Source: Bacteroidota bacterium (GTDB lineage Bacteria; Bacteroidota; Bacteroidia; Bacteroidales; GCA-2748055). Taken from it: a DNA stretch of 64,000 bases. How positions within the stretch are numbered: position 1 is the first letter of the stretch; every line of letters begins with the position of its first letter. The stretch spans positions 3,695 to 67,694 of the forward strand of contig JBDLIQ010000006.1 in assembly GCA_039714775.1 (NCBI GenBank). Reading direction: 5' to 3'. The position numbers and the translations under genes were made by a program. The notes beneath the pieces are model-generated. The model made no database searches. It was not told where the DNA came from and saw nothing but the letters and a program-made list of their open reading frames with translations. Positions 11 through 43,199 of the stretch are shown piece after piece.

Positions 11-3000
11 CTAGAAAGTCAGGTTTAACTTGATTCCAACGGGCATGACCCAGGGTTCCACATTGTACCTTTCAATTCCCTGTTTGAAGTGTCCGGCTTC
101 GGCCTGGAAGGCGCGTTCCGGATCGATCCCGATCTTGGCCTTGGTCCAGAGCATGATGTTCCGGCTAAAGACCGATACAGAGGCATTCTTTATACCTATT
201 CGGCTGACCAGTGAAATGGGAAGCTGGTAGGAGAGCGATATCTCTCTTAGCTTAACAAAGTCCGAGTCAAATGTGGAAGGTGCTGTAAAACCCCACGGAT
301 AACTCACAATGTAGGGCATCACTGTGGTGCCATTCGGTTCACCCATGTTCTCTCCCAGGTGTTCCACATAGGTTACTCCCCCTTCGCCATCAGGTACTTC
401 AATCACCCCGGGAATAAAATAACCATCATTGACTGTCACGCCACTCCAGCTCTCAGGGAATCCCCCATACTCGGGGGTGGGGCCACCCACCACATGAAAT
501 CCGTTCCTGATATACTCATCCTCGTTGGCCACCAGCCAGTCTCTGAGCTCTTTACCTGTCCTGTTACCCGGGTGGATCAACTGGTCGAGCCAGTGTTGCG
601 AATTGGCATTCTCGGCCATGTACCTGTAGGTCTGTGAAACAAATTGCCCGCCTTTCCTCCAGTCAAATGTCATGTTAAGGCTAAAACCCTTGAAAGTAAC
701 CGAAGTCTGCAGGCCCAGCAAAAAGTCGGGATTATAGTTCCCAATCTTATTCCTGGTATCCTCACTCTTAATATCCTGCCACTCGTTATCGCTACCCCCG
801 ATAATTGGATAGCCATAGTAAGGCGATTCCGGATCCTCTACAGTAATCACCCTGGAATCGTAGATGTCTCCAATCTGATCCCCTTCATAGGTCCATGCCC
901 CCCCCTTTGCATCATTCCAGAAACGGATCAGCTCAACTCCTTCAGCTATCTCCGTCAGGGTGGTCCGGTCACGATAAAAGTTGGCAGTAATATCCCAGGT
1001 CCAGTTGTTGTTTCTTACCGGTGTTCCCCCCACAAGGAGTTCCAATCCTTTACTCTCAATCAGACCGGCATTTATTGTTTTCACGGGGTATCCGGTGGAA
1101 CTGGCAAAGCGTACATCGTAAATCTGATCGCGATTATCCGCTTCGAAATAGGTACCTTCAAACCTGATCCGGTCATTGAACATGCGTAGGTCAGTACCAA
1201 ATTCCCAGGATATGGCGTCTTCATTCTTCATTGCATTGTTATAGACTTTTCCCGGTACTGAAAGCCTTGTGGCATCACCCCACTGTCCTACATTTCCATA
1301 TGTTGCAACAAGATTATAAGGATGGGTTCCATTCCCTACGTCTGCCACTCCTCCCCGCAGTTTAAAAAGATTTACATTGCGGCCCAGGTCCACCATCTCA
1401 TTGATCAGCATACTCAGGGAGACAGAGGGGTAGTCATAACGCCAGTTCTCCTTTGGAAGGGTACTGGCCCAGTCACTCCTGTAAGTCAGGTCCAGATAAA
1501 CCATATCTTTAAAGGAGAGGTTAGCCAGGCCATAGAGGCTGTAAACGGCCATCTGGGACCAACCACTCCCGTAATTAAGGGATCCCGACTTAATATTACT
1601 TACGGTATATACACCCGGCACGATCAGCCCCGCCTTGGATTTGGAAGAGTTGCTCAGGGAAGACCCTTTCGCATACCGGGCATTTCCTCCTCCTGAAACC
1701 GTAAAACTCAGAGCGCTAAGCTCCCTGGTGTATGAAAGCAGAAAGTCTGCGTTGCGATCATAGTTCATCAAATCCACCACCCCGTATGCTCCGTTGTTGG
1801 GTTCCCTTGAATAACTGGGTCCGATCTTGGTCTCTCTCTTTTCACTATACCTGTCCAGGGAATAGCGCCCCATCAGGCTCAGTTCGGGAAGGATCTGCCA
1901 GAGGGCCTTCAGGTTCCCATACACCCGGTCCCGGGTAAAGCTGTTGTTCACTTCATAGGCCAGGAAATAGGGATTGTCATAGACTCCGTTATAAGGTGTT
2001 CTCTGCTGAACCCCTTCCTGTCCTGGTTCCCAGTAGTCCTCCAACTCCGAGATGGGGATGTTGAGGGGCACCTTGTAGGCCCACTCCAGTGGATTGGTCC
2101 CCCGGTTGCTGGAGGGCCTGTTATCAGACCAGGAGCGATTGATGTTGAAGTTTGAACTGATGGTCAGTTTTTTTGTGGCCTTTACCGTCCCTGCAAGGGA
2201 GAGGCTGTTCTTGAAAAGATCAGTGTTGGGAACAATCCCCTGGTGGCTCATGTTGGCATAGCCGATCCTGTAGTCCATAAGCTCTGTATGGTTTGCAACA
2301 GAGAGCCCGTTGGTAGTGGTGATCCCGGTACGAACAAAGTTGGCTACATTATCGGGATTGGAGACAACCTCAATGGGTACAGGATTCCCAAGGGCATCTT
2401 TCGGACTGTGCCACTGCAGGGCATAATATCCTTTATCACACTCGATCCCGGCACCAGCTGCCTGTGCAGGCGAGATCTTCATTACAGACCCCGGGTAGTT
2501 CTCGGGTGTGAATGAAAAATAACCGGAGGAAAAATGCTTCTGGGTCTCAAAGTATTTATAGGGCCGGTCGAATACGGTATTGGAGGTCACATTCACTGTC
2601 ATGCCACTGGCTCTATTTCCCGATTTAGTAGTGATCATTATAACCCCGTTGCCTGCCCGTGAACCGTACAGGGCCGCTGCGCTTGCTCCTTTCAGTACAG
2701 AAATACTCTCTATATCATCAGGATTGATGTCTGAAATTGCATTCCCATAATCCACAATGTTTCTTTCACCGAACTGGGTAGTGTTGTTGACAGTATTGAT
2801 CATGGGAACACCATCTACTACAAATAACGGCTGGTTATCAGTGGTCAGGGAACCTGCCCCCCTGATTACCATGTTCACCGACGATCCGGTTCCCCCGGTT
2901 GAGTTGATCACAACTCCGGATACTTTTCCTGCCAGGGAGTTCAACACATTTTCATTCACCACCCGGTTGATCTCCTCACCGGCAACTTTCCCCACTGAGA

Positions 3001-3409
3001 AACCGAGGGACTTCTCCTCCCGGGTAATACCCAGTGCAGTGACAACCACCTCCTCCAGCTGCTCGGCACTTTCTGCCAGGGCCACATCGATGATTCTCTG
3101 ATTCCCGACGGTTAACTCCCTGGTTTCATAACCTATGTAAGAGTAAACCAGGATCGCCTGGGTACCAGATACTTCAATAGAATACTCCCCATTGTTATTG
3201 GTAATCACACCTGTTCGTGTTCCTTTAATGACCACATTGACTCCGGGGAGAGCGCCTCCATCCAGAACAGATGTCACTGTTCCTGAGACTGCAAAGGATT
3301 GTTGGGCCATGACCTGACTCACAGGCAGGAGCCCGGTTAGCAGACATGCACAAAGGGCTGCCGAACGCAAGCGCTTCAGCAGCTTTGGCAAAAAAAGATG
3401 GTTGTTCAT
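11..3409 (-). CDS. SusC/RagA-family TonB-dependent outer-membrane glycan transporter
   Basis: 1132-aa ORF with a signal peptide. Carboxypeptidase-regulatory-like N-domain (VSGTVTSVLDGGALPGVNVVIKGTRTGVITNNNGEYSIEV). Plug motifs (EVVVTALGI, NMVIRGAGS). Long barrel ending in an aromatic residue (...KLNLTF). A partner SusD would lie left of the window. Confidence 0.9.
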   Translation of the reverse strand: MNNHLFLPKLLKRLRSAALCACLLTGLLPVSQVMAQQSFAVSGTVTSVLDGGALPGVNVVIKGTRTGVITNNNGEYSIEVSGTQAILVYSYIGYETRELTVGNQRIIDVALAESAEQLEEVVVTALGITREEKSLGFSVGKVAGEEINRVVNENVLNSLAGKVSGVVINSTGGTGSSVNMVIRGAGSLTTDNQPLFVVDGVPMINTVNNTTQFGERNIVDYGNAISDINPDDIESISVLKGASAAALYGSRAGNGVIMITTKSGNRASGMTVNVTSNTVFDRPYKYFETQKHFSSGYFSFTPENYPGSVMKISPAQAAGAGIECDKGYYALQWHSPKDALGNPVPIEVVSNPDNVANFVRTGITTTNGLSVANHTELMDYRIGYANMSHQGIVPNTDLFKNSLSLAGTVKATKKLTISSNFNINRSWSDNRPSSNRGTNPLEWAYKVPLNIPISELEDYWEPGQEGVQQRTPYNGVYDNPYFLAYEVNNSFTRDRVYGNLKALWQILPELSLMGRYSLDRYSEKRETKIGPSYSREPNNGAYGVVDLMNYDRNADFLLSYTRELSALSFTVSGGGNARYAKGSSLSNSSKSKAGLIVPGVYTVSNIKSGSLNYGSGWSQMAVYSLYGLANLSFKDMVYLDLTYRSDWASTLPKENWRYDYPSVSLSMLINEMVDLGRNVNLFKLRGGVADVGNGTHPYNLVATYGNVGQWGDATRLSVPGKVYNNAMKNEDAISWEFGTDLRMFNDRIRFEGTYFEADNRDQIYDVRFASSTGYPVKTINAGLIESKGLELLVGGTPVRNNNWTWDITANFYRDRTTLTEIAEGVELIRFWNDAKGGAWTYEGDQIGDIYDSRVITVEDPESPYYGYPIIGGSDNEWQDIKSEDTRNKIGNYNPDFLLGLQTSVTFKGFSLNMTFDWRKGGQFVSQTYRYMAENANSQHWLDQLIHPGNRTGKELRDWLVANEDEYIRNGFHVVGGPTPEYGGFPESWSGVTVNDGYFIPGVIEVPDGEGGVTYVEHLGENMGEPNGTTVMPYIVSYPWGFTAPSTFDSDFVKLREISLSYQLPISLVSRIGIKNASVSVFSRNIMLWTKAKIGIDPERAFQAEAGHFKQGIERYNVEPWVMPVGIKLNLTF

Positions 3410-3663
3410 AGTTTTAGTTTAGTATGTGTAGTTCAGGTACAGTACAAGCAAAAGTCAGATAAACTTATGAAGACAGAATCACATTGTCAAGTTTTTAGTA
3501 GTTTTACAAGTAATATTAACCAAATTTTTAATATGCTAACTCTACGTCAGATAATAGGGTTAATTTATTATAAGTATTGGTTAAAATTCCATAAAATCGA
3601 GACAGAGTCAATCATTCAAGTCAGTTGCAGTCAGATTACCTGTTTAATTAAAACTAACGGAAT

Positions 3664-8722: not shown

Positions 8723-11700
8723 TCAGCCCTGAACAGAGCTGGAGTTTACTTCAGAGGGATTCTTGTTAAACAACTTTTTAAATGCTCTGCTGAAATAGGC
8801 CGGATCATTGAACCCCACCCTGTAGGCAATCTCAGAGACTGAGAATTCGCCCTTTAACAGCAGTTTATTTGCCTCTTTGAGCCTGATGTTCCTGATAAAC
8901 TCGGAGGAGGTCAAACCCGTCATCTTCTTTAGCTTCATATGCAGATGGGTCCTGCTAACATTCATCTCCTTGCAGAACTGGTCCACGCCAAATCTACCGT
9001 CATCCAGGTGTCTGAAAACGGTATCCGAAAGTTGTTTGATAAACACCTGGTCCCTGTTCCCGAGGCTGTCTGTTGTTTCGCTGAACGAATCAGTTCCTGA
9101 AAGGTGTTTGCGCAGGTTTTCGCGTGACCGGAGGATATTTCTGACCTGCAGATCCAGCTCCTTCAGGTTAAAAGGTTTGGAAATGTATGCATCAGCCCCC
9201 AGAAGAAGGCCATCCACACGGGATTCTGCATCAACCTTTGAGGTCAGCAAAATCATTGGGATGTGAGAGGTTTCGATGGAATTCTTTACTGCATTACAGA
9301 GCCTGAACCCATCCATATGCGGCATCATGATATCACTTATAATCAGATCAGGCTGAGCTTTCTTAATCCTTTTCAATGCTTCTTCTCCGTTTCCGGCAAT
9401 GATTACTTTAAATACACCTGAGAAATGGTGCTTGAGGAAAGAGGCCAGTTCCATGTTATCCTCAACGATCAGGAGCTCATACTTTGTCACTGAAGCATGA
9501 TCCTGAACATCAAATTCAACGAAAGGCTCCGACTTGTAGTCTGGCAGCACATCATCCGGCGTAAAGCTTGTGTTCTTTTCAATGAACCGGTCATCCTGGA
9601 TCAGTCCCGGATCCGGGTTATGCACCAGGGGTAACTGAACAACGGCCCTGGTCCCACCAGCACGGGGAGAGGTCATTACAATTTTCCCGCCCAGGTATTT
9701 CACAAGGCTGTGAACCAGAGAGAGCCCGATGCCGCTGCCCGGGAACTCCCGGGAGTCGGAGGAGACAAATGGCTCAAAAATATGCTTCCTGTTCTCCGCG
9801 GTGAGGCCCTGCCCGTTATCTGTGACTGTGATGATGATGCTCCCGGTTTTCTCCGATTCCGGACTGGCCAGGTGACTTCTCTCAGAGATTCTTACATCCA
9901 CATCAATCTTCCCCTGCTTCTCAAATGATTTACAGGCATTGCTAAGCAGGTTGGTCAGTATCTTTTCAAACTTATCAGCATCGAAAAATGTAATATAGGA
10001 GTCCCGGTTTGTAGTGAAGGTACCTTCGACAGATCTCTTCTCCATCAACGGATTGAAGGATTCAAAGGTTGATTGAATAAATGCAACAACATCACCCCTG
10101 TTGAATTTGAGCCTTACATGGTCGGTTTCAATTTTACGAAAATCCATCAACTGGCTAATAAGCACCAGAAGCCGGGTTGCATTTTTCTTCATCAGGGTCC
10201 CGTAATCCTTCATGGCCGGCAACAGGTTTTCATCACTCATCACATGCTCCAGTGTGGCAATGATCAGGGTCAGAGGAGTTTTAAATTCGTGACTGATGTA
10301 TGTGAAGAAATTGATGCGGTGCTTGCTTATCTCTTCATTTTTCTCCTTTTCCATTTTTGCAAGGCTTATGTTCATCAGTTCCCTTTGCCTTACCATATAG
10401 AAGCGTACAGACATTAGTGTTACAGAGACAATAAGGAATCCGTATAGAATATATCCCCATACAGATAACCAGAAGGGAGGCTTCATATGAAGTGATACCG
10501 TTCGCTCCTCTCCCGTCCAGACACCTCCACCCGCTGAAGCCTTTAAATGAAAAATATATTTTCCGGGAGAGAGGTTTGTATAGGTGGCACTGCGTTGATT
10601 TCCTACATAATTCCATCCCTCTTCCAGTCCCTCAAGAAAAAAAGCATATTCAGTATTTCCGGGAGCGTAATAGTTCAATGCCACAAAATCAAATGTGAAC
10701 ACTTTGTGCCTGTATCTCAGAGTGATCTCCTCCTGAAAATCAATATGGGTGGTAAGAATATCCTCCTTTCCAACTTCAAGGGATTCATTTGATAACTTAA
10801 AATCAACAAAGTGGATGACAGGTCTGGTGTCTGGCTTCTCCAGCTTCCCAGGATCAAAATAGGTCAACCCGTTCACAGCTCCGAAATAGATGATTCCGGA
10901 TGATGTAAGCAGTCCGGACCGGAAATTAAACTGGTTGCTGACCAATCCGTCATTCCCTGTATAATTCACAAACTGTTCTGAATGGGGATCCAACATAGAG
11001 AGCCCCCTGCCAGTACTTAGCCAGAGCTTACCTTCCAAATCCTCTGCGATGGCATATACCGTGTTACTGGGAAGCCCCTCCTCCACGCCATAGGATGTGA
11101 AATGATCCCTGGCCGGGTCGTATTTCAGCAGACCGCCCTCCTCGCTCCCGAACCAGGTAAATCCTTCCGAATCAAAATAGCAAAATATGAATCTGTCACT
11201 CAGTATATCCCTGTTGGTCCCCTTCCGGTAGTTTAAAACATGCATGTCGGGGTCAATCTTATAAATACCCTGTTCATAACTACAGGCCCATATGTTGCCC
11301 GAATGATCCTCCTCTACATGATAAATGAAGTTGTTGTTGAACAGTTCCGGTTTCCAGATCTTAAACTGATCATCCTCTATCTCTTTCATATAGAGGCCCT
11401 CAATAGAGCCCACCCAGATCCGCCCCTTTGAATCGATATGAATAGAGAAGAGGGATTTGGAATAGACATCCTCTTCCATATTTACCGGGGGGGAGAGCTC
11501 AATGCGCTCCACATGTCCGCTCTGTGCATCATACCTGTTCAGTCCTCCGATAAATGTACCGATCCATACATTCCCCTCATGATCCTCCTCCAGTGCATGT
11601 ACATTATTGGAAGACAAAGAGCCCGGATCCCCCGGGGTATGTTTCAGGTAAGAGAATGTTCCGGTACCGGGATCCAGAATACTGATGCCACCATCCTCAG

Positions 11701-12862
11701 TGGCAATCCATAATTTTTTATCCGAAGTTTCAATAATCTCGCTAACCGCATTTCCACCCAGGATTTTATGGCCTCCATCTGCATATATCCTTCTGAAACC
11801 CTGCGGCCTCAGGGTTGTATAGTTGACCCCTCCAAAATAGGTCCCGATCCACATCATGTCATCCCTTGACCTGAAGATTGAATAGATGGCCTTATCGTTC
11901 AATCCCTTTTCATACAGATTAAAATTCTGACCATAAAACTGAAAAGTTTCTGCGGAGGCATCATAGATGTACAGACCCGATTCCGTACCTATCCACAGCC
12001 TGCCGTTTGCATCCTCGCTGATGGTCCGCACAAAATTATCTTCGATGGGGTTCACACCCCGCTGTAGTTTAAGGGAATGAAACTCATCTGATTCATAATC
12101 GTAATAAGCCAGTCCGTCCCTCTTGGTACCAAGCCACACCTTTCCTGAGGAGTCTTTAAACAGGCACTCCACATTTGAAGAGGACATGTCGAAACCGGCC
12201 ACATTCCCCATTGCATTTGAGTATCTCCTGATGATCTCACCCTCCACATTCATCACCAGGATTTCATTTCCATACAATCCCCAGATCACCCCCGTTCTGA
12301 ACTCACAAAGGTCCCTGAACTGGCTGTATCCTCCCAATTGTCTGATCTGCTTCTCCCGGTTGACCAGAAAAAGGCCCACGTCAGAGGATATCAAAACCTC
12401 ACCGGATGACAATTCAATCATACTGGCAACATTTCCCAGGGATTTTTGCCTGCAGAGTAATTCGGTAAATGAATCTGTCAACTTTTCATAAACCGCACCC
12501 CCCTGCAGGGTTCCTATAAACAGATCCCCCGATTCTGTCACGCAAAGCCGTGGAATGTGGTTCCCGGGAATGGTCAATATCCCGTCCCGGTAATAGGATG
12601 TAATCTCGTGTCCGTCATATCTGTTCAGCCCCTGCCTTGTGGCTATCCAGATGAAACCCTCCTTATCCTGGATGATACTAAATACCGTATTGTTTGACAA
12701 TCCCTGTATGGATGTGATCTGATTAAACTGAAGATCAGCATAGATCTCTCTGCCGGAACCATAGAGGCCCGGAGCAAAGAATAGCAGGGCCAGGATCATC
12801 CATAAATTGATATATGAAGCTATATTTCGCAAGAATTGACCTGATTGAACGTGAGTACCCAA
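8723..12862 (-). CDS. Hybrid two-component system sensor kinase/response regulator with AraC-type HTH (HTCS1)
   Basis: 1379-aa ORF. Periplasmic two-propeller (Reg_prop-like) repeats. TM helix (FWLSVWGYILYGFLIVSV). H-box FFTYISHEFKTPLTLI. ATPase motifs (TVTDNGQGL, GSGIGLSLV). Receiver domain (LLIVEDN ... DLIISDIMMPHMDG ... LTSK). C-terminal AraC HTH (VGFNDPAYFSRAFKKLFNKNPSE). The track start at 12862 is TTG. The real start may be TTG 12832 or ATG 12799 (see findings). Confidence 0.9.
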   Translation of the reverse strand: MGTHVQSGQFLRNIASYINLWMILALLFFAPGLYGSGREIYADLQFNQITSIQGLSNNTVFSIIQDKEGFIWIATRQGLNRYDGHEITSYYRDGILTIPGNHIPRLCVTESGDLFIGTLQGGAVYEKLTDSFTELLCRQKSLGNVASMIELSSGEVLISSDVGLFLVNREKQIRQLGGYSQFRDLCEFRTGVIWGLYGNEILVMNVEGEIIRRYSNAMGNVAGFDMSSSNVECLFKDSSGKVWLGTKRDGLAYYDYESDEFHSLKLQRGVNPIEDNFVRTISEDANGRLWIGTESGLYIYDASAETFQFYGQNFNLYEKGLNDKAIYSIFRSRDDMMWIGTYFGGVNYTTLRPQGFRRIYADGGHKILGGNAVSEIIETSDKKLWIATEDGGISILDPGTGTFSYLKHTPGDPGSLSSNNVHALEEDHEGNVWIGTFIGGLNRYDAQSGHVERIELSPPVNMEEDVYSKSLFSIHIDSKGRIWVGSIEGLYMKEIEDDQFKIWKPELFNNNFIYHVEEDHSGNIWACSYEQGIYKIDPDMHVLNYRKGTNRDILSDRFIFCYFDSEGFTWFGSEEGGLLKYDPARDHFTSYGVEEGLPSNTVYAIAEDLEGKLWLSTGRGLSMLDPHSEQFVNYTGNDGLVSNQFNFRSGLLTSSGIIYFGAVNGLTYFDPGKLEKPDTRPVIHFVDFKLSNESLEVGKEDILTTHIDFQEEITLRYRHKVFTFDFVALNYYAPGNTEYAFFLEGLEEGWNYVGNQRSATYTNLSPGKYIFHLKASAGGGVWTGEERTVSLHMKPPFWLSVWGYILYGFLIVSVTLMSVRFYMVRQRELMNISLAKMEKEKNEEISKHRINFFTYISHEFKTPLTLIIATLEHVMSDENLLPAMKDYGTLMKKNATRLLVLISQLMDFRKIETDHVRLKFNRGDVVAFIQSTFESFNPLMEKRSVEGTFTTNRDSYITFFDADKFEKILTNLLSNACKSFEKQGKIDVDVRISERSHLASPESEKTGSIIITVTDNGQGLTAENRKHIFEPFVSSDSREFPGSGIGLSLVHSLVKYLGGKIVMTSPRAGGTRAVVQLPLVHNPDPGLIQDDRFIEKNTSFTPDDVLPDYKSEPFVEFDVQDHASVTKYELLIVEDNMELASFLKHHFSGVFKVIIAGNGEEALKRIKKAQPDLIISDIMMPHMDGFRLCNAVKNSIETSHIPMILLTSKVDAESRVDGLLLGADAYISKPFNLKELDLQVRNILRSRENLRKHLSGTDSFSETTDSLGNRDQVFIKQLSDTVFRHLDDGRFGVDQFCKEMNVSRTHLHMKLKKMTGLTSSEFIRNIRLKEANKLLLKGEFSVSEIAYRVGFNDPAYFSRAFKKLFNKNPSEVNSSSVQG

Positions 12863-12883
12863 AATCTGAACAAATGTACAAAA
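12846..12883 (+). promoter_or_regulatory. Candidate AraC/HTCS operator, copy A: TGAACgtgaGTAC-N8-TGAACaaatGTACaaaa
   Basis: Two TGAAC-N4-GTAC direct repeats with starts 21 nt apart (12846 and 12867). They end 74 nt before the SusC ATG at 12954. The same architecture occurs at 49409-49446 (-) and 51871-51908 (+). Confidence 0.55.
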
Positions 12884-12953
12884 TGGTCATTACATCCGTT
12901 CCGTAACTTGTGTACAAATTAGTTTTTTATACTAACTAAAACCTAATCTAACT

Positions 12954-15947
12954 ATGAAACGTAAGTTACTCTTCGTTATCCTGTCAATTTTTTTTGTTGG
13001 CATAATCAATGCACAGGATAACCAGATAACCGGAAAGGTTACCGAATCTTCCGGAGAGACACTGCCTGGGGCTACTGTAATGGAGAAAGGCACCTCAAAC
13101 GGAACTGTCACAGACATTGATGGGAACTATACCATTACTGTTTCAGACCAGAATGCTGTCCTGATAATCTCTTATGTTGGTTACCTCTCACAGGAGATAG
13201 CTGTAGGGCAACAAACTTCAATCAGCGTAGTCCTTGAGCTGGATATCGCCTCCATGGAGGAGGTGGTAGTCATTGGTTATGGTACAGTCAAGAAAAAGGA
13301 CCTTACCGGTGCTGTTTCAGTGGTTGACACAGACGCTTTCCAGGATGCCCAGTCACTTTCAGTGGGAGACGCTATCCAGGGACTTGCCTCAGGTGTAACC
13401 GTGCGTTCAAATGGTGAGATCGGCAGTGAACCCAATATTATTATACGGGGAATCGGCAACATCAGCAACAACAACCCCCTGTATGTGATTGATGGTTTCA
13501 TCACAACAGGCGGCATCAGGGACCTGAACGTGAATGACATTGCATCGGTTCAGATACTGAAAGATGCCTCTGCAGCAGCCATTTACGGAAACAGGGCTGC
13601 CAACGGGGTAATTATTATCACCACAAAGAAAGGTAAAGCTGGTGAACCAATGATTGACTTTTCAGCCAAATTCGGTATGGAAAAATTACCGGCACTGAAC
13701 CTGATGGATACAACCGATTTCTTCTACTATAATGACATGGCCTATGACAATGCCGGCAGGCAGAGGCAGGATCATTATGACAACAATACCGACTGGGAGA
13801 AGGAGGGTTTGCAAACAGGCTTCTCACACGATTACAACCTGGGAATTTCAGGAGGAAGTGAGAACAGCAGCTACCTTGTCTCTGCAAACTATCTGAAGAA
13901 CACCGGTACTTTCATTGGCACAGACCTCGAGAGATATAGTATTCGGGTAAATACTGAAGCCACAAAAGGCATACTTACCGTGGGCGAGAACTTTGCCTTT
14001 AGCAATACCGCAGTCACACCCTACAGCGGAGGCAATGCAATTACAGATGTGATGCGTATGACACCGGATATTGCTGTGTATGACTCAACACATTTCGGAG
14101 GATTCGGTTTCGGAGATGAAGCCAGAGCCCGTACTTTTGGAACCAACCCCATTGCCATCCAGGAGCTTGTCAGACGGCGTCAGCAGAACGCCCGTATCCG
14201 TGGTAATCTGTTTGCAGAGGCACAGATCTTTAAGTTTCTGAAATATAAGATGACCGTGGGTTATGAATCCAGTTTCGATGCATTCCATATGTTACGAAAG
14301 GAGGGTGACTTTACCCTAAACCTGCCCTACCAACCATCTTTTGTCTATGATAACAGAGCAAGGTACCAATCCTTCCTTTTTGATAACCTTGTTACGTTCG
14401 ATAAGAGTTTTGACGGACATACGATCAATGCAATCGTTGGTTCAAGTTACCAGCGGGAAGCTTACGATCAGATAAATGGCCATTATCAGGATATTTTTGT
14501 AGCAGGTGGGGAGTATCTTGATGTCCTTGATGCAGGATCCACCAGTCCCAAAGTTGGAGGATTTCGCAATGAGATTTACCGCATCTCCTATTTCGGGCGT
14601 GTAAATTATGACTACAACGGAAAGTACCTCCTCAGTGCAACATTAAGGAGAGACGCAACTTCCCAGTTTGGCCCCAATTACCGGACAGGCTATTTCCCAT
14701 CCCTCTCTGCCGGCTGGAGGATGAGTGAAGAGGAGTTCTTTAATGTTGACTGGATCGATAACCTGAAGGCAAGGGCCAGTTATGGTGAATTGGGAAACAG
14801 CGCCTTCGGCGGACAATATGATTATATAGCGAGCATGACCACATTCCCGCTTGCAGTATTTGGAACCGACACCGAAACAATATTAAGTGGTGCCACACAA
14901 CGGGAGCTGGTCAATGAGGACCTGACCTGGGAAACATCGAAACAGACAAATATCGGTGTTGATGCCGGATTTCTCTCAAACAAACTGCAGATTTCAGCAG
15001 ACTACTACATCTCCATTACAGAAGATGTGCTGGTTACCTTCCCGATTCTCATTGCAACCGGTAACGATGGAGGTAACCCCTGGGTCAACGCAGGGAGCCT
15101 GAAGAACTCCGGAATTGAACTGGACCTGACCTGGCGAGAGACACGGGGTGACTTCAGATACTCTGTTTCTGCCAATTTTACCACAATTAAAAACGAGGTT
15201 CTGGACCTGCCCTATGGCGACAACACCATTATCACCGGACTGTGTATCACAAAAATCGGGGAACCTATGGCCATGTTCTACCTGGTTGAAACCGATGGCA
15301 TCTTTCAAAGTGAGGAAGAGGTGCTGGCCCATGTGAATTCTGAAGGGACCGTTATACAACCCGAAGCAGAACCGGGTGACATCCGGTATGTGGATTATGA
15401 TGACAATGGCATCATCTCAGCAGCCGGCGACCGCCAGGTTCTGGGAAATCCCTGGCCAAAAATTCAGGCAGGTATACAATTCAGCGCGGCCTACAAGAAT
15501 TTTGATTTTGCGATGAACAGTTTTGGTGCATTCGGACAGACCGTATTTGCCGGGACCCGGTCCATGCTGGAGCGGTTTAATGACAACTCCAACTACAGGT
15601 ATGGGATGGAACATCCCTGGACGCCGGAAAACACCAACACTGATTTTCCAAGGGTACTTTACGGTGATGAGAGAAACTCCGTCGGATGGACTAACAGGTG
15701 GCTTGAAAGCGGTTCATACTTCAAAATCCAGCAGGTAACAGTTGGATACACCTTCAACTTCGAACCCATCAAGAAGCACATACAAAACCTGAGAGCAGCT
15801 CTGTCCGTACAAAACCCGATTACTTTTACAAATTACAGCGGGCTGGATCCCGAGTTTAATAACTGGAATGTTCTTGAGTTCGGAGTGGATGGCAACTCTT
15901 ATCCTTCACCCAGAATTGTTAGTTTCTCATTAACCGCCAAATTCTAA
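12954..15947 (+). CDS. SusC/RagA-family TonB-dependent transporter (PUL-A)
   Basis: 997 aa with a signal peptide. CarboxypepD_reg-like N-domain (ITGKVTESSGETLPGATVMEKGTSNGTVTDIDGNYTI). Plug (EVVVIGYG, IIIRGIG, ILKDASAAAIYGNRAANGVIIITTKKG). C-terminal ...SLTAKF. Followed 18 nt later by SusD. Confidence 0.92.
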   Translation: MKRKLLFVILSIFFVGIINAQDNQITGKVTESSGETLPGATVMEKGTSNGTVTDIDGNYTITVSDQNAVLIISYVGYLSQEIAVGQQTSISVVLELDIASMEEVVVIGYGTVKKKDLTGAVSVVDTDAFQDAQSLSVGDAIQGLASGVTVRSNGEIGSEPNIIIRGIGNISNNNPLYVIDGFITTGGIRDLNVNDIASVQILKDASAAAIYGNRAANGVIIITTKKGKAGEPMIDFSAKFGMEKLPALNLMDTTDFFYYNDMAYDNAGRQRQDHYDNNTDWEKEGLQTGFSHDYNLGISGGSENSSYLVSANYLKNTGTFIGTDLERYSIRVNTEATKGILTVGENFAFSNTAVTPYSGGNAITDVMRMTPDIAVYDSTHFGGFGFGDEARARTFGTNPIAIQELVRRRQQNARIRGNLFAEAQIFKFLKYKMTVGYESSFDAFHMLRKEGDFTLNLPYQPSFVYDNRARYQSFLFDNLVTFDKSFDGHTINAIVGSSYQREAYDQINGHYQDIFVAGGEYLDVLDAGSTSPKVGGFRNEIYRISYFGRVNYDYNGKYLLSATLRRDATSQFGPNYRTGYFPSLSAGWRMSEEEFFNVDWIDNLKARASYGELGNSAFGGQYDYIASMTTFPLAVFGTDTETILSGATQRELVNEDLTWETSKQTNIGVDAGFLSNKLQISADYYISITEDVLVTFPILIATGNDGGNPWVNAGSLKNSGIELDLTWRETRGDFRYSVSANFTTIKNEVLDLPYGDNTIITGLCITKIGEPMAMFYLVETDGIFQSEEEVLAHVNSEGTVIQPEAEPGDIRYVDYDDNGIISAAGDRQVLGNPWPKIQAGIQFSAAYKNFDFAMNSFGAFGQTVFAGTRSMLERFNDNSNYRYGMEHPWTPENTNTDFPRVLYGDERNSVGWTNRWLESGSYFKIQQVTVGYTFNFEPIKKHIQNLRAALSVQNPITFTNYSGLDPEFNNWNVLEFGVDGNSYPSPRIVSFSLTAKF

Positions 15948-15965
15948 TAAGAAAAAAACAGAGCC

Positions 15966-17573
15966 ATGTTAAAGAAATATATCATATTACTAGCAATATC
16001 TACAGGACTTCTCTCCTGTAACGAAGATATCCTGAACGTGGAGAACCCCAATGTACCTACACAGGATACATTCTGGGGAACCGTCGATGATGCCCAGAAA
16101 GGATTAACAGCGGTCTACAGCCAGTTTACCAGGGTTGGTAACTGGTCGCGATGGATCTATTTCAGGTATGACCTCACCTCGGACGAGGGTTACAGCAATA
16201 CACCCTGGGGCGAACTGGGTGACTGGACCCGGTTTGTATATGTTAACTACAATTTCATACAGGGTGGACACACCATCTTCAAAGGGCACTATAAGCAGAT
16301 ATTTCAGTGCAACCAGATTATCGCCTATGCACCCGATATTGAAGGCGAGAATGATGCAGAAAATGATCTGCGGGATGCAATTATTGCCCAGGCAAAATTT
16401 ATCAGGGCATTAGACTATTTTAATCTTGTGGTGTTGTTTGAGAACCTGCCCATTTCACTTGAACCCTCCAAGGCGGGTGACAAGCATGAGGTAGGCGGTC
16501 CCGATGTAATCTATCCAATCATCATCCAGGACCTTGAGGATGCCATTGCTGATCTTCCTGAAGTGTGGACAGAAGATGCTGATAAGGGAAGGGTTACAAA
16601 GGGAGCTGCATATGCCCTGCTGGGTAAAGTATATATGCAACTGCACCAGTGGCAGGATGCAAAAGATGCATTTGACCACCTGGTTACAGGTGATCTGGCT
16701 CTCTATTACGGGCTGATGGATGACTACGTTGATAACTTCACCCACTACAAAGAGAACAACATGGAGTCTGTTTTTGAGATTCAGTTCTCTGATGCAAATG
16801 AAACCTCGATGGACATGAACAACGGTTCAGATATTGATGATGATATTGCTGAAATGTCACTGGGCAGTTCACGCTCACAATTTTTTGCGCCAACCGGCTG
16901 GAAGGATGGTCAGCCAAGACCATGGCTGGTGGATGAGTATAAGCGGGAACAGACCGTTGACTCACTTGAAAACGGCAACTATTATGATACCAGGCTGTTG
17001 ACAAGCATCATCTATCCCGATATGTTCAAGGACTTTCCCAACGTAACACTTTTCAACGGCACTATCACCAAGTGGAAGTTCACATGGAAGAAAAAACTCT
17101 TCTTCAGAAAGTATGGAGATGACTATTTTAAAGAGCGGACCGACTACTTCTCCCCCATCAATTACAGGGTGATCAGGTATGCAGATGTGCTGTTGTGCTA
17201 TGCCGAATGTCTTGCTGAGCTTGACGATGTTGCAAACGCTGTAATCTACGTGGATAGGGTAAGGCAACGCCCCAGCACCAACCTGCCACCCATGGCATCC
17301 AGTTCCGATCCCGATATAGCTGCCAGTATCAATTCCAAAGATACATTCCTGAAGAGGCTGCAGATGGAGAGATCACTGGAACTTAGCCTGGAATCTGTAA
17401 GGTGGATCGATCTCAGAAGATGGGGATTACTTGAGACACAGGAGGGTATTGATGAGCTGATCACACGTGATGCCGATTTTGAGAACTTTGAACTGGGGAA
17501 ACACCACATCCTGCCTCTGCCACAATTAGAGGTAGATAACAATCCGAATTTGGAGCAAAACCCGAATTATTAG
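15966..17573 (+). CDS. SusD/RagB-family outer-membrane glycan-binding lipoprotein (PUL-A)
   Basis: 535 aa. Lipobox LLSCNE. TPR-like helices (AYALLGKVYMQLHQWQDAKDAFDHL). Typical size and position directly after SusC. C-terminal LPQLEVDNNPNLEQNPNY. Confidence 0.88.
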   Translation: MLKKYIILLAISTGLLSCNEDILNVENPNVPTQDTFWGTVDDAQKGLTAVYSQFTRVGNWSRWIYFRYDLTSDEGYSNTPWGELGDWTRFVYVNYNFIQGGHTIFKGHYKQIFQCNQIIAYAPDIEGENDAENDLRDAIIAQAKFIRALDYFNLVVLFENLPISLEPSKAGDKHEVGGPDVIYPIIIQDLEDAIADLPEVWTEDADKGRVTKGAAYALLGKVYMQLHQWQDAKDAFDHLVTGDLALYYGLMDDYVDNFTHYKENNMESVFEIQFSDANETSMDMNNGSDIDDDIAEMSLGSSRSQFFAPTGWKDGQPRPWLVDEYKREQTVDSLENGNYYDTRLLTSIIYPDMFKDFPNVTLFNGTITKWKFTWKKKLFFRKYGDDYFKERTDYFSPINYRVIRYADVLLCYAECLAELDDVANAVIYVDRVRQRPSTNLPPMASSSDPDIAASINSKDTFLKRLQMERSLELSLESVRWIDLRRWGLLETQEGIDELITRDADFENFELGKHHILPLPQLEVDNNPNLEQNPNY

Positions 17574-17626
17574 AATTTTAAATAAGTACGTTTTATTAAT
17601 CAAATGTTTAACTAAATCTTTTAATT

Positions 17627-18586
17627 ATGAAAAAAAATCTATTCCTGTTGGCAGCAATTGCATTACTGAGCGGACAAATCTTATCCGCACAAGATCATCA
17701 CTGGCCATTAGAAACTGATCTGAACGATGTTGTTGGCATACTAGACGGAACCAACAATGGTGTATCATTTGAAAATGATGCTGTTCGTGGTGATGTTTGT
17801 TACTTCAATGGAGAGGGATATGCCAATCTACCCTCTTTCATTAACGGAAATGGCACTGACCTGACTGTCGCAGTGTGGTGGCGTATGGATGAGAAGCAGG
17901 TGTGGTCACGTATCTACACTTTCGGTACCGGTGACCAGTCCGAGCCAAAAGATGTGATGATGGTCATTCCAACCAGTGGAGCAGTTGAAGAGGGCAGTGA
18001 TCCAGCCCACAACATGTACCGCTTTACCCTGTCAGACCCTGCCGGTTGGATTGATGCCGATTTCTACAAGGAGGAGGTTGATGTTGCGCTTGACACATGG
18101 TACTACTCTGTTGTTGTGCTGAAGCCCGATTCTGTTATTGTTTATCACGATAACACCCGGATTCTTGCTGAAAGTGGTCTGACATCCAGGTCAATCGGAG
18201 AGATGAGTGATGTTGAGAATGCCCTTGGCAAAAGCTTCTGGCCGGATGCCTTATGGAAAGGTGCACTAAGTGACCTGAGGGTTTGGAACTCTGCATTAAC
18301 ATATGAAGAGGTGATGGCGCTATACAGTTCAACTATGCCAACAGGAGTTTCTGAAAAGAGCATTGATGAAGATGCTCCGAACGTATACTCCTATCTTGAC
18401 AAGATCGCTGTGGACCTGAATGAACCGTATACCGATGAGGTTGCATCTGTATACAGCATTACAGGGGCCCTTATTGCAGAGAAACCGGTTCCTGAGATCA
18501 GCCAGGTCACATTTAACACAGGAATCTATATTGTAAATGTTCATGGTTCCAGGGTTAATCATGCAACAAAGGTTTTTGTTAAGTAA
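17627..18586 (+). CDS. LamG/concanavalin-like lectin-domain protein with T9SS C-terminal sorting domain
   Basis: 319 aa with a signal peptide. LamG-like hallmarks (DGTNNGVSFENDAVRGDVCYFNG..., GALSDLRVWNSALTYEEV). C-terminal ~80 aa resemble a T9SS type-A CTD (VASVYSITGALIAEKPV ... GIYIVNVHG ... KVFVK). Paralog of 43257-44195. Confidence 0.7.
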   Translation: MKKNLFLLAAIALLSGQILSAQDHHWPLETDLNDVVGILDGTNNGVSFENDAVRGDVCYFNGEGYANLPSFINGNGTDLTVAVWWRMDEKQVWSRIYTFGTGDQSEPKDVMMVIPTSGAVEEGSDPAHNMYRFTLSDPAGWIDADFYKEEVDVALDTWYYSVVVLKPDSVIVYHDNTRILAESGLTSRSIGEMSDVENALGKSFWPDALWKGALSDLRVWNSALTYEEVMALYSSTMPTGVSEKSIDEDAPNVYSYLDKIAVDLNEPYTDEVASVYSITGALIAEKPVPEISQVTFNTGIYIVNVHGSRVNHATKVFVK

Positions 18587-18603
18587 TTAAACAACCTGAT
18601 AAA

Positions 18604-18642
18604 AGAGGGTGTTCCGCCACGGCGGACTACCCTCTTTTTTTT
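18604..18642 (+). terminator. Rho-independent terminator closing the SusC-SusD-LamG cassette of PUL-A
   Basis: AGAGGGTgttCCGCCacGGCGGactACCCTCT followed by T8. GC-rich nested stem. Confidence 0.75.
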
Positions 18643-18697
18643 CCCTTCACAATTTTGTAACTGTCTCTGATTAGGCGCTAAAATTATCTTCTCAGGT

Positions 18698-21460
18698 GTG
18701 GATCCGGATAATATTATTTGTATGAAAAAAGGAAATTTATTGGTTTTAGTGTTGCTGATATTTAGCATATCCGCATCTGCCCAGGGTTGGAAAAATCCCA
18801 TGACATTGGATGGAGAGTGGTCCTACTATGGCATAGGAGATCCTTATGTATTGAAACACAATGGTGTTTATTATCTCTATTGCAGTACAAAGGATTGGGA
18901 GACCGGTGTTAAAACCTGGAGCTCTAAGGATCTGATGAACTGGTCTTATGAAGGACTCTGCTCAACAGATCCCATCAGCGAATCAGCCTTTGCCCCGGAG
19001 GTGTATTACTGGAACGGTATGTTCTACATGTACACCTCACCGGCAGGCAGGGGGCATTACGCACTCTCCAGTGACAGTCCCACAGGCCCCTTTACCGTTG
19101 CAAGTCCCATGCTCTATAAATGGATCGACGGGGCAGTATATATTGATGATGATGCCAACTGGTATTTTTACCATGCACATGTGAATGGAATCCAGGGATG
19201 TGAGATGCCCTCGCCCATTGAAGTGGGTACCAGTGTCAACCTGAATGCCCAGATGAACAGCTCATGGACCGAAGGGCCCTGCCTGTTTAAGCGAAACGGG
19301 GTCTACTATATGATCTATACAGGGAACCACCTCCGTACCACCGGGTACCGCATTGATTACGGAACCAATACCACCGGTCCGCTGGAACCATTCACCCCGG
19401 CATCTCTCCAGAATCCGATACTTCTGAACACCATGGGGGACCATGTGGGGCTGGGACATGGATCCATCTTTCTCGGACCCGATCTGGACAGCTATTACCT
19501 TACCTATCACAGCATGATAGACCGTGGGCCACGCCAGCTGAACTTTGACCGCATCGCCTGGAACGGAGAGAAGATGATACTTCTTGGCTCTACAGATTTC
19601 GAGCAGCAGAGAGCCGCCCTTCCCGATGCATATGACTATTTCGAAAGGGAATCTCCAGGTGAGGGATGGAGCTTCACCGGTGGCGGGCAATGGAGCATAC
19701 AGAATAGTGAGTTCCTGCTTCAGGATGCGCCTTTTTCAGGTGTCGAAACATGGTACAAAGCCCTGTTGGACAGCACCACACAGGACAATTTCACTGCCGA
19801 ATTCAACCTCAGGGAGATCAACAGAGAGAACGATGAGGCCCGGGCAGGTGCAATCTTCTCATATGTTGACGAAGGAACCTTCGGGATCGCATTGATCCAT
19901 GGTTTCACAAAGAAGCTGGAGATCAACTTCCTGAAAGACAACGTATGGGAGGCACCTCAATATTATGAACTGCCTGCTGATTTTGATCTCTCCGCGTGGC
20001 ACACCATTCGCATCGAAAAATACAATGGCCAATTCCGCTTTTTTGTGGATGGCCTGCTAAAAGGGTCCCTGGTCAACGAAGCAGGAGCGGGAAAAACAGG
20101 TTACCTGGCCAGCCGGAACCATGTTGCTTTTGGATTTATCGGTTTCAGTAACATGGTGAATGGCTCCGGCGTATTCGACATCCATAAACCGCTGCCCGGA
20201 GAGATAGATGCAGTGCTCTACAACCAGGGCGGTGAAGGGGTGGGTTATCATGATGAGACTCCCCCTGCAGAGCCTGGTAATATCATCCGCAGTGATGAAA
20301 CTGAGATCATAGAGTGTTCCCGCGGAGGGTATGCGATCCATTCGGTTAAGGCCGGTGACTGGTACAGATACAATGTAAATGTAAAGCGTGACGGCAACTA
20401 TAATTGCGAAGTGGTCTATGCATCTGCATCCTCCTCAAACAGTATCACCATATCTGTCGGTGAAACTGATGTTTCCGGTGTGGTTGAGCTCCCCTCCACA
20501 GGGGGAACTGATCAATGGCGCTCCTTTGTCATAAAGAATCTTCAGCTTCCCACGGGAACCCATACCCTGAAAGTTGAAGCTGTTTCCGGGGATTTCGATT
20601 TTTACTCATTCCGGTTTGTGGAGGCAGATAATGATGCACATGATAAAACGTTTGATTTTGAATATTCATTTGGCAAAGGCTGGGAATATCGTGATGGCGA
20701 CTGGTCCATACAAAATCAGGAGGCTGTTGTGAACGGTTATGGCAAACGCACCTATGGCAGTGCTGCATGGAGAGACTATACTGTTGAAACAGATATGGTA
20801 TTTACCAGGGGAAGGAATGCCGGATTGATGTTCCGGGTCAATAATCCAGCTCCTGGCGGAGCAGCTAATGATCCCGAAAACGATCCCGAATGGGGCACCA
20901 GTTTCTTCCAGGGCTACTCTGTCAGATTCAGTCCCAGCAATGTGTTACTCTTCAAGCACAATTATGACAGTAAACTGATCACTTTAGGTCCGGGTTCATT
21001 CCCGATGGATAGCTGGTTCCACCTGAGGGTGGTGGTGGTGTATGACAGCATAAAGGTCTATGTGGATGATATGGTAAACCCGGTGATCAACTACAGAGAC
21101 ACCATTCCCTTTATCAATGGAATGGCCGGATTTCACTCTGTTGGTACCGATGTCCGGTTTGACAACTTCAGGGTTACCTCCAAACTGCTTACCACCTCGG
21201 ATAGGAAAAACCGGGAAGAGGTAGCGCATGAATTGATGCATGTTTACCCCAATCCATCATCCGGGTCAACCATGATTGAGTTTGGAAGTGCAACCCGGAG
21301 AAAAATCCGGATTGCAGACACGAGGGGTGTCACCCTAATCTCATACAACACCAGCAAAGAGAGGGTGGTTCTGCCGGCAAATACAATCCCGCCGGGCTTC
21401 TACATTGTGATAGCCGAGGATAAAACCGGAATTCATACAAAAAAACTATATATTAAATAA
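18698..21460 (+). CDS. GH43-family hydrolase fused to LamG/DUF1080-like modules, CBM6-like module and T9SS CTD
   Basis: The likely true start is ATG 18722 (MKKGNLLVLVLLIFSISASAQG). GH43 blades: GDPYVLKHNGVYYLYCS, FAPEVYYWNGMFYMYTS, WTEGPCLFKRNGVYYMIYTGN. CBM6-like segment: IDAVLYNQGGEGVGYHD ... GDWYRYNVNV ... TGGTDQWRSF ... GTHTLKV. Two DUF1080/LamG-like modules; the second ends GFHSVGTDVRFDNFRV. CTD: VYPNPSSGSTMIEF ... GFYIVIAED ... KKLYIK. Confidence 0.8.
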   Translation: MDPDNIICMKKGNLLVLVLLIFSISASAQGWKNPMTLDGEWSYYGIGDPYVLKHNGVYYLYCSTKDWETGVKTWSSKDLMNWSYEGLCSTDPISESAFAPEVYYWNGMFYMYTSPAGRGHYALSSDSPTGPFTVASPMLYKWIDGAVYIDDDANWYFYHAHVNGIQGCEMPSPIEVGTSVNLNAQMNSSWTEGPCLFKRNGVYYMIYTGNHLRTTGYRIDYGTNTTGPLEPFTPASLQNPILLNTMGDHVGLGHGSIFLGPDLDSYYLTYHSMIDRGPRQLNFDRIAWNGEKMILLGSTDFEQQRAALPDAYDYFERESPGEGWSFTGGGQWSIQNSEFLLQDAPFSGVETWYKALLDSTTQDNFTAEFNLREINRENDEARAGAIFSYVDEGTFGIALIHGFTKKLEINFLKDNVWEAPQYYELPADFDLSAWHTIRIEKYNGQFRFFVDGLLKGSLVNEAGAGKTGYLASRNHVAFGFIGFSNMVNGSGVFDIHKPLPGEIDAVLYNQGGEGVGYHDETPPAEPGNIIRSDETEIIECSRGGYAIHSVKAGDWYRYNVNVKRDGNYNCEVVYASASSSNSITISVGETDVSGVVELPSTGGTDQWRSFVIKNLQLPTGTHTLKVEAVSGDFDFYSFRFVEADNDAHDKTFDFEYSFGKGWEYRDGDWSIQNQEAVVNGYGKRTYGSAAWRDYTVETDMVFTRGRNAGLMFRVNNPAPGGAANDPENDPEWGTSFFQGYSVRFSPSNVLLFKHNYDSKLITLGPGSFPMDSWFHLRVVVVYDSIKVYVDDMVNPVINYRDTIPFINGMAGFHSVGTDVRFDNFRVTSKLLTTSDRKNREEVAHELMHVYPNPSSGSTMIEFGSATRRKIRIADTRGVTLISYNTSKERVVLPANTIPPGFYIVIAEDKTGIHTKKLYIK

Positions 21461-21476
21461 CTAATAATCCTGAATC

Positions 21477-22574
21477 ATGAAGCGTAAATCATTGAATGCA
21501 TTGACTGTACTGACTACACTGATCTTTTTACTTGCAGGATGTGGTGCCAACCAAAAAGAGGAGATTAACAAGGGAAGAACCGAACCCTGGAGTGTTGAGC
21601 AGGCGAAAGCATGGGGGGAGCAGAACCCCTGGCTGCGGGGTGCCAATTTCAATCCAAGCACAGCCATTAACCAGCTTGAAATGTGGCAGGCGGAATCGTT
21701 TGATCCGGAGACCATCGACCGGGAGCTTGGATGGGCCGAAGAGGCCGGATTCAACAGCATGCGTGTCTATCTGCATCACCTGGCCTGGCAGATCGACAGG
21801 GAAGGCTTTAAATCCCGCATGGACCAGTATCTGGATATTGCCAACAGGCATGGTATAAAGACCATCTTTGTATTTCTGGACGACTGTTGGAATGCTGAAT
21901 ACAAGGCAGGAAAACAGCCCGATCCCAAGCCTGGGATTCACAACTCCGGATGGGTACGGGACCCGGGCGACCTGATCTTCCGGGATCCGGGACTTAAAGA
22001 CACCCTTGAGGTATATGTGAAGGATATCCTGAATGCTTTTACGGAAGATGAAAGGATCGTGATGTGGGATCTTTACAATGAGCCGGGGAACAACGGTCTG
22101 GGCAACAAGTCCATGCCCCTGTTGCAGGATATCTTCACATGGGCTCGTGAAGTGAACCCAAGCCAGCCTTTGTCTGTAGGAGTATGGCACCATGAGCTGA
22201 CCGACCTGAACAGGTACCAGCTGGAGAATTCTGATATCATCACCTACCATAATTATGCCGATGAGGTGCAACATGGCAATGCCATTGACACACTGAAGGC
22301 CTATAACCGGCCCATGGTGTGCACAGAGTATATGGCACGTAAGAACAGCAGCAGGTTTGAAAACATTATGCCGCTGCTGAAGCAGGAGGGTGTGGGTGCC
22401 ATCAACTGGGGATTGGTTTCCGGTAAATCCAACACCATCTATGCCTGGGACACTCCCATACCCGACGGTTCGGAACCGGAAGTATGGTTTCATGATATTT
22501 TCAGGGCCGATGGCAGTGTATTTGACCAGGCTGAGATCGATCTGATCAGGAAACTGACCGGAACAGAGGAATAA
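21477..22574 (+). CDS. Clan GH-A (GH5-like) glycoside hydrolase lipoprotein
   Basis: 365 aa. Lipobox LLAGCGAN. TIM-barrel clan-A hallmarks: GFNSMRVYLH, acid/base context WDLYNEPGN, candidate nucleophile context VCTEYMAR. The subfamily cannot be assigned by eye. Confidence 0.65.
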   Translation: MKRKSLNALTVLTTLIFLLAGCGANQKEEINKGRTEPWSVEQAKAWGEQNPWLRGANFNPSTAINQLEMWQAESFDPETIDRELGWAEEAGFNSMRVYLHHLAWQIDREGFKSRMDQYLDIANRHGIKTIFVFLDDCWNAEYKAGKQPDPKPGIHNSGWVRDPGDLIFRDPGLKDTLEVYVKDILNAFTEDERIVMWDLYNEPGNNGLGNKSMPLLQDIFTWAREVNPSQPLSVGVWHHELTDLNRYQLENSDIITYHNYADEVQHGNAIDTLKAYNRPMVCTEYMARKNSSRFENIMPLLKQEGVGAINWGLVSGKSNTIYAWDTPIPDGSEPEVWFHDIFRADGSVFDQAEIDLIRKLTGTEE

Positions 22575-22590
22575 AAGCTATACTTGCATC

Positions 22591-26765: not shown

Positions 26766-26796
26766 TCAAATTCAGATACTTTGAGCCGTTGCTTTC

Positions 26797-27957: not shown

Positions 27958-27969
27958 ACCGGAGAACAG

Positions 27970-28998: not shown

Positions 28999-29027
28999 TA
29001 TATTGTAATCCTCGAAGAGAGAGGCAA

Positions 29028-29036
29028 GGGGGGGGG
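29028..29036 (+). repeat. G9 homopolymer tract 6 nt upstream of the CotH-family start codon
   Basis: Read directly: ...gaggcaaGGGGGGGGGatcagaATG. Confidence 0.9.
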
Positions 29037-29042
29037 ATCAGA

Positions 29043-38993: not shown

Positions 38994-39041
38994 ATGGCTA
39001 ATATATATTTAATTGACAAAATGTTACATTCATTTATGTGT

Positions 39042-42113: not shown

Positions 42114-42122
42114 CTCCGGATC

Positions 42123-43193: not shown

Positions 43194-43199
43194 ACGCAG

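Follow-up and report, generated by a model that had tools for sequence, protein, structure and literature searches.

A 21-bp-phased direct repeat upstream of three operons is a candidate operator of AraC-output hybrid two-component regulators in an uncultured Bacteroidales bacterium

The window analysed here is a stretch of 64,000 nucleotides from contig JBDLIQ010000006.1 (assembly GCA_039714775.1) of a Bacteroidales bacterium. It encodes two hybrid two-component system (HTCS) regulators, HTCS1 and HTCS2, and contains a tandem repeat of the 13-bp half-site TGAAC-N4-[G/A/T]TAC upstream of three operons, two of which are polysaccharide utilization loci (PUL1 and PUL2). HTCS regulators control much of how Bacteroidota use glycans. 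The original prediction was that this repeat is a candidate operator of the AraC-output HTCS regulators. It draws support from features that were computed directly, namely the sequence architecture of the element and its statistical significance, the conservation of the element beside orthologous HTCS genes, and the constant phasing to a −7-like promoter box, and we consider it likely that the element is the DNA operator of HTCS1, of HTCS2, or of both.

The element is present three times in the window, as sites A, B and C. The scores are those of the outside-trained matrix described below.

12846–12879 (core; 12846–12883 in full), plus strand: site A, TGAACgtgaGTAC ccaaaatc TGAACaaatGTAC aaaa, matrix score 27.9
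51871–51904 (core; 51871–51908 in full), plus strand: site B, TGAACatggGTAC ataagatc TGAACaagcATAC aaat, matrix score 27.3
49413–49446 (core; 49446–49409 in full), minus strand: site C, TGAACatggATAC taagaatc TGGACaactGTAC aaaa, matrix score 26.9

On re-reading the window, the three 38-nt strings were found with the coordinates and letters that had been predicted. All three sites are intergenic, and each is oriented towards its downstream operon. Site A is located in the 154-nt gap from the ATG of HTCS1 (12799, minus strand) to the ATG of the SusC gene of PUL1 (SusC1, 12954), site B is 5′ of an operon encoding a GH62-like and a GH127 protein, and site C lies in the region from the stop codon of a CotH gene to the start codon of the SusC gene of PUL2 (SusC2). 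In each of the three sites the second half-site starts exactly 21 nt after the first, and the distance to the start codon is nearly constant, as claimed (74, 73 and 80 nt for A, B and C, measured from the end of the 34-nt core). The spacer ending in ATC and the A-rich tail, which were also part of the predicted architecture, are present in all three sites, but in the relatives described below the ATC is conserved only in part (as T-n-TGAAC) and the tail is not conserved.

A degenerate 34-nt pattern, TGRAC-N4-RTAC-N8-TGRAC-N4-RTAC with up to two mismatches, has three matches on the two strands of the 64 kb, and these are sites A, B and C. Dinucleotide shuffles give an expectation of 0.04 matches, and none of 100 shuffles yielded three. 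The pattern was composed from the observed sites themselves, and an independent test was therefore made, using a matrix whose training set was nine sites on other contigs and nothing else; it was restricted to 18 columns with at least 1 bit, selected on that set alone. Among 128,000 window positions, A, B and C occupy the top three places, and the fourth-ranked position scores 14.2, a value that the third-best score in 200 Markov shuffles never exceeded. A full-width matrix that included the uninformative columns under-scored site B (12.0), an artefact that was gone after the restriction to columns of at least 1 bit. When the outside-trained matrix was run over 159 distant HTCS or histidine kinase loci (1.53 Mb of DNA), no position reached 20 bits. 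In the DNA scanned, the density of the element in coding or unrelated sequence is thus not comparable with that at the three promoters. Half-sites taken singly, with one mismatch allowed, show no enrichment in the window (52 found, 42 expected), and the signal is therefore the phased dimer. The exact string TGAAC-N16-TGAAC has eight matches in the window and related loci, compared with seven in about 1.5 Mb of distant loci.

The two regulators are encoded as follows.

8723–12799, minus strand: HTCS1, with Reg_prop propellers, Y_Y_Y, HisKA, HATPase, receiver (REC) and AraC-type helix-turn-helix (HTH) domains (Pfam), divergent from SusC1
32600–36694, minus strand: HTCS2, a paralogue of HTCS1 (67% identical), at the 3′ end of PUL2

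The start codon of HTCS1 was chosen from the gene-caller product P0001 together with an alignment of orthologs. Both proteins end in an AraC HTH domain, as predicted, and both have the full HTCS architecture of periplasmic sensor, HisKA, HATPase, REC and HTH (Pfam). The REC-HTH part of HTCS1 matches PDB entry 12AW, which is the crystal structure of BT4124R (E = 1.4e-52), the SHIP latch motif included. Its DNA-binding domain aligns with MarA across both HTH units. The recognition helices are SRTHLHMK and NDPAYFSR in HTCS1, compared with SRSLLHTK and YDPSHFCK in HTCS2, and the helices SRTLLHMKLKK and GFNDPAYFSKSFKK are strongly conserved among relatives that are at least 47% identical.

A protein search placed the window on a 68-kb metagenomic contig and found HTCS relatives with 45–65% identity, of which those with names come from Bacteroidales metagenome-assembled genomes and from Saccharicrinis. 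Every one of them is closer to HTCS1 than to HTCS2. The DNA around twelve relatives was examined, and a 21-nt-phased TGAAC dimer was found in all the loci that have relevant intergenic DNA, namely L082–L087, L167 and L170 (HTCS 52–65% identical). There are nine sites in these eight loci, with a spacing of 21 nt in every one, and they are located 5′ of SusC or of the divergent gene.

L086: TGAACAAAAATAC-N8-TGAACAAAAGTAC
L167: TGAACAATAATAC-N8-TGAACAAATTTCC
L083: TGAACAATATTAC-N8-TGAACAATTCTAC
L082: TGAACAATTTTAC-N8-TGAACAATACTCC, with a second dimer 72 nt upstream
L085 (Saccharicrinis): two dimers, 74 nt apart
L087: TGAATAGAATTAC-N8-TGAACAAATGTCC
L084: TGAACAAACTTGC-N8-TGAACAATTGTGC, 5′ of SusC in a PUL with different cargo (GH2/DUF3823)
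L170: TGAACATTTGTCC-N8-TGAACAGCAGTCC, beside an HTCS without a PUL

The element is therefore seen to be conserved near orthologous targets and regulators, within intergenic DNA that has otherwise diverged. Because L084 with its GH2/DUF3823 cargo and L170 with no PUL both keep their sites, the element tracks the regulator and not the cargo. At L168 and L169 the PUL starts beyond the DNA flank obtained, and at L081 the contig ends within the site. At L088, which has a 45% identical HTCS, there is no dimer and no comparable divergent gene.

A further locus on the L083 contig, L171, encodes a paralogue (47% identical) with an altered recognition helix, SRTNLHRK. It has a 21-nt repeat of its own, GGAACACTAATAC-N8-GGAACACTGTTAC, located 5′ of its divergent GH172 gene. 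The motif here is GGAACAC-N3-TAC, which is shifted, but the architecture is otherwise identical. Another TTGAAACAAT pair, also 21-nt phased, is found 5′ of the next GH172 gene. At L171 both the motif and the helix of the regulator differ; the helices of HTCS1 and HTCS2 differ without a site difference that can be assigned to them.

The distal second dimers at L082 (9858, minus strand) and L085 (9869, minus strand) are separated from the first by 72 and 74 nt, or about seven helical turns, which is reminiscent of the two adjacent footprinted sites at bt4114. At L170 (7855, minus strand), where the HTCS is 53% identical, the full dimer is 146 nt upstream of the regulator's own gene and faces away from it, and there is no gene downstream. 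It is an orphan candidate operator that may be autoregulatory.

The primary sigma factor of Bacteroidota recognises TAnnTTTG at −7 and TTTG near −33 (PMC7366714). Predicted −7 boxes were found at the same place downstream of each of the three sites, where positions are numbered from the first base of the proximal half-site.

12904–12910, plus strand: predicted −7 box TAACTTG of the PUL1 operon, position 38
51929–51935, plus strand: predicted −7 box TAAATTG of the GH62-like/GH127 operon, position 38
49382–49388, minus strand: predicted −7 box TATCTTG of the PUL2 operon, position 38

In the intergenic regions of both B and C, the predicted box is the only TAnnTT[TG] in the sense of the operon. 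A TAnnTT starts at position 37 or 38 at 10 of the 12 sites (position 38 in A, B, C, L086, L087, L084 and L085, and 37 in L167, L083 and L082), compared with a frequency of about 0.01 at any other position of these segments. The exceptions are L170, the orphan site with no downstream gene, and L171, which has the near miss TATTATTA. The gap from the end of the proximal half-site to the box is 23–24 bp. Given this fixed distance, the element would span about −69 to −36. The operator would then lie beside a poor −33 element, in a class II geometry of the araI1-I2 type.

The promoter spacer contains a further short string, ATC-N-GTTC[C/T], between operator and −7 box (12894–12901, 51919–51926, and 49398–49391 on the minus strand). 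It is not conserved in the related loci, except for a shifted GTTC in L082, and could be a lineage-specific second site or reflect shared ancestry.

Arrangements of this kind are already on record for HTCSs. Ravcheev et al. (2013) predicted motifs for 16 HTCSs of B. thetaiotaomicron, all of them direct repeats whose tandem sites are on average 21 bp apart, and took them to be bound by HTCS dimers on one face of the DNA (PMC3878776). A DNase footprint published in 2026 showed BT4124 bound to tandem half-sites spaced by about 21 bp, with BT4124 acting as a repressor or fine-tuner and its paralogue BT4111 activating via the same sites (PMC13292587). The statement in the original prediction that the DNA targets of HTCS proteins are poorly defined is thus partly outdated. 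The element described here shares three features with HTCS operators of the type predicted by Ravcheev et al., namely 21-bp repeats, a position upstream of HTCS-linked PUL operons, and conservation.

The HTCS_Rgu-1 system (BT4111/BT4124) likewise has tandem direct half-sites with a spacing of about 21 bp, 5′ of PUL operons, and like the present system it has two paralogous HTCSs with one motif, the REC-HTH regions being homologous (the match to 12AW given above). The half-site of BT4111/BT4124 is AACAAAnnTTAC, i.e. (A)AACAAAnATTAC(AC), which resembles TGAACAnnn[G/T]TAC here. The published sites are CAAAAAATACTATCGTAAAAACAAATATTACAC followed by TAATTTTG for BT4114, and ...AAACAAATATTGCAC followed by TACATTTG for BT4116 (PMC3878776). 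In both of these, the end of the 13-nt half-site is 23 nt from the −7 box, compared with 23–24 nt here. There are also differences. The 5′ subsite is TGAAC here and AAAAC or AAAC in the BT4111/BT4124 sites, the first recognition helix of the regulator is SRTHLHMK here and SRTIFYRK there, and the cargo is of GH43, GH62-like, GH127 and GH172 type, as opposed to pectin genes. The host here is an uncultured environmental Bacteroidales/Marinilabiliales-like bacterium with enzymes secreted by the type IX secretion system (T9SS), in place of B. thetaiotaomicron, and the system is known here from sequence alone.

The predicted HTCS_Hep operator (BT4663) also has 21-bp phasing, and its T[A/G]AACAAA and TGCACAAATGTG resemble TGAACAAATGTAC here (PMC3878776, Additional file 2). 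This comparison is between sites and not between regulators; HTCS_Hep differs in being a prediction only, in its heparin-related cargo, and in its 3′ subsite. The araI1-I2 site of E. coli AraC consists of direct repeats with a 21-bp period, with the proximal half-site directly adjoining the upstream element of the promoter. The present element is like araI1-I2 in its 21-bp direct repeats and in the AraC-type domain with two HTH units. AraC is a soluble, arabinose-binding dimer, whereas the regulator here is a membrane-spanning fusion of kinase, receiver and HTH under phosphorylation control; the promoter is of the sigma-ABfr type (−7/−33), unlike that at araI1-I2, and there is no sign of an araO2-like distal looping site. 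In the marbox of MarA, Rob and SoxS (PDB 1BL0), two recognition helices read a two-part site of about 13–20 bp in adjacent major grooves. This two-part reading matches the TGAAC-N4-TAC substructure seen here, although MarA binds a single site as a monomer and here two sites are phased for a dimer.

We infer from these data that an HTCS binds the element, and the same holds for whether regulation is positive or negative, for where transcription starts, and for which paralogue acts at each site. The 13-bp half-site is itself bipartite and would fit one AraC-type domain, the two HTH units of which would contact adjacent major grooves. Since the half-sites are 21 bp, or two helical turns, apart, two domains of a dimeric, membrane-anchored HTCS could share one face of the DNA. 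In the proposed mechanism, an oligosaccharide would be sensed in the periplasm, and the receiver domain would then be phosphorylated. The bound regulator would most likely recruit RNA polymerase, like AraC at araI1-I2, so that PUL1, PUL2 and the GH62-like/GH127 operon would be switched on together. Sites B and C have a common distal half, TGAACATGG[G/A]TAC, and this shared half hints at HTCS2 as the regulator acting at these two sites.

Several observations weigh against this interpretation. HTCS1 and HTCS2 differ at the base-contacting positions identified by alignment with MarA, and yet sites A, B and C are nearly identical. Sites A and C have no recognisable TTTG at −33, and the −7 boxes are TAnnTTG, not the full TAnnTTTG. 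The conservation is drawn from only about ten related loci, since both of the large scans were dominated by generic motifs: a scan of genome contigs with an HTCS1/HTCS2 alignment picked out generic kinase and receiver peptides (about 31% identical for the best among the listed matches) and served as background only, and a scan of metagenome contigs with an alignment of the N-terminal sensor was swamped by LWIGTESG, the only close relatives among the listed matches being L087 (64%) and L088 (45%). Finally, BT4124 is a repressor or fine-tuner at such sites, and activation therefore cannot be assumed.

This last point leads to the alternative that an HTCS does bind the element, but that the site serves mainly for repression or fine-tuning, for example with one paralogue activating and the other competing for half-sites, as reported for BT4111/BT4124. 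BT4124 binds tandem half-sites of the same geometry and lowers expression, with its paralogue BT4111 as the activator, and here too two 67% identical paralogues share one motif. We nevertheless regard it as unlikely, because a weak −33 element combined with a constant position directly 5′ of the −7 box is the classic geometry of an activator site, and because PUL-linked HTCSs have mostly been described as inducers (PMC3878776).

The element could also be bound by some other protein, such as a cytoplasmic AraC-family regulator or a global carbohydrate regulator, and be near HTCS genes by chance. Many AraC/XylS proteins do use direct repeats 21 bp apart. However, the site follows the HTCS through different cargo, and even where there is no PUL, which makes a binder other than an HTCS very unlikely. 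The absence of the site near distant HTCS genes (159 loci, 1.53 Mb) and the change of the motif with the recognition helix of the L171 paralogue point the same way, and no second regulator gene is common to the related loci.

It is more improbable again that the repeats are not an operator but −7 boxes (TAnnTTTG) read from the other strand, with the divergent gene under their control. The proximal half of site A when reversed, GTACATTTGTTCA, does hold a perfect TACATTTG, and several half-sites from orthologous loci also give TAnnTTTG on reversal. Against this, only one of the six half-sites in the window gives a proper reversed box, there is no divergent gene at site C or at the L084 site for such a box to drive, the best-conserved bases (TGAAC) fall outside the box, and two boxes 21 nt apart are not expected in a promoter. 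That the element is a transcribed leader acting as RNA, or a relic of chance or duplication, is hardly credible: its distance of 73–80 nt from the start codons is compatible with a 5′ untranslated region, but there is no match to an Rfam family in the window, the folds of the three putative leaders are no better than those of shuffled sequence (z = −0.2, +1.4, −0.4), direct repeats cannot pair with one another, the predicted −7 box follows the element at a constant distance, only 0.04 matches are expected by chance, and the flanking genes are not recent duplicates.

A promoter for an extracytoplasmic function (ECF) sigma factor, with GAAC as its −35 element, was also considered and set aside. 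The window has no sigma/anti-sigma pair, and it is whole 13-nt units that are repeated, not a −35/−10 pair.

If the element is an operator of the local HTCS regulators, as we prefer, then it may also affect the genes for the regulators themselves. The reverse complement of the proximal half of site A (12867–12879) contains the perfect −7 box TACATTTG at 12878–12871, which is 72 nt upstream of the HTCS1 ATG. An occupied site A could occlude the promoter of HTCS1 and so bring about negative autoregulation. At the start of HTCS2 there is a degenerate dimer, TGAACATGATATC-N8-CAGACAAATGTAC (36688–36721, plus strand), which overlaps the start codon and has the 10-mer ACAAATGTAC in common with site A; its score of about 10 is at the null level. 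When reversed it likewise yields the −7 box TACATTTG (36720–36713, minus strand), which lies 19 nt before the ATG of HTCS2. The degenerate dimer may mark the promoter of HTCS2, or it may be left over from an ancestral layout in which HTCS and SusC were divergent.

A fuller scheme can be put forward tentatively, and we would regard it as doubtful at present. The two paralogues have diverged (67% identical, with differences in the residues predicted to contact bases) and would share one operator at three promoters that have unrelated first genes. This would make a cross-regulated circuit of two PULs and a satellite hydrolase operon, in which one paralogue might be the activator and the other a competitor, as proposed for BT4111/BT4124. 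The proximal half of site A would double as the −7 box of HTCS1, so that occupancy would shut off the HTCS1 gene.

The operons downstream of the three sites are as follows.

12954–32588, plus strand: PUL1 operon, encoding SusC1, SusD, LamG, GH43-CBM6, GH5, GH62/GH43-like, DUF2961 (GH172-type) and CotH-LTD proteins
36768–49332, minus strand: PUL2 operon, encoding SusC2, SusD, LamG, beta-propeller-like and GH43-like proteins and a protein of unknown function
51978–55334, plus strand: third operon, encoding a GH62/GH43-like protein and GH127 (beta-L-arabinofuranosidase family)

The cargo between 12954 and 55334 includes GH43, GH5 and GH62/GH43-like proteins, a double DUF2961 (GH172-type) and GH127, and therefore suggests an arabinofuranose-rich target glycan. 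T9SS sorting domains are present on several of the PUL1 products. SusC1 and SusC2 are only 27% identical. An origin of A and C by duplication of a PUL was considered and rejected on account of this low identity; because site B in addition precedes a hydrolase gene, the three promoters are not copies of a recent duplication. Two large proteins of the CotH kinase family (29043–32588 and 49482–51764) are unusual PUL cargo. A third SusC-like gene at the edge of the window (11–3409, minus strand) has no TGAAC dimer in the DNA upstream of it (3410–3663), and presumably belongs to another regulon. In the Saccharicrinis locus L085, a Cas9-like gene with Cas9_a, HNH_4 and RuvC_III domains (20503–24080) is found about 6 kb downstream of the HTCS.

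To our knowledge, BT4124 is the only HTCS with an experimentally mapped site, and predicted motifs come nearly all from gut Bacteroides. The architecture reported here is already known, and this case does not change the understanding of HTCS systems; the element would serve as operator for an uncharacterised group of environmental HTCSs, and both its architecture and its promoter phasing are canonical. It adds a clean, cross-validated consensus of a candidate operator for an uncultured environmental lineage, T-n-TGAACA-N3-[G/T]TAC twice, 21 bp apart. Sites A, B and C provide three probes suited to binding assays, and HTCS1 and HTCS2 are a natural pair of paralogues for studies of specificity and cross-talk. 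The fixed distance to the −7 box equals that in the published B. thetaiotaomicron alignments, and could be a rule for finding HTCS-controlled promoters in metagenomes.

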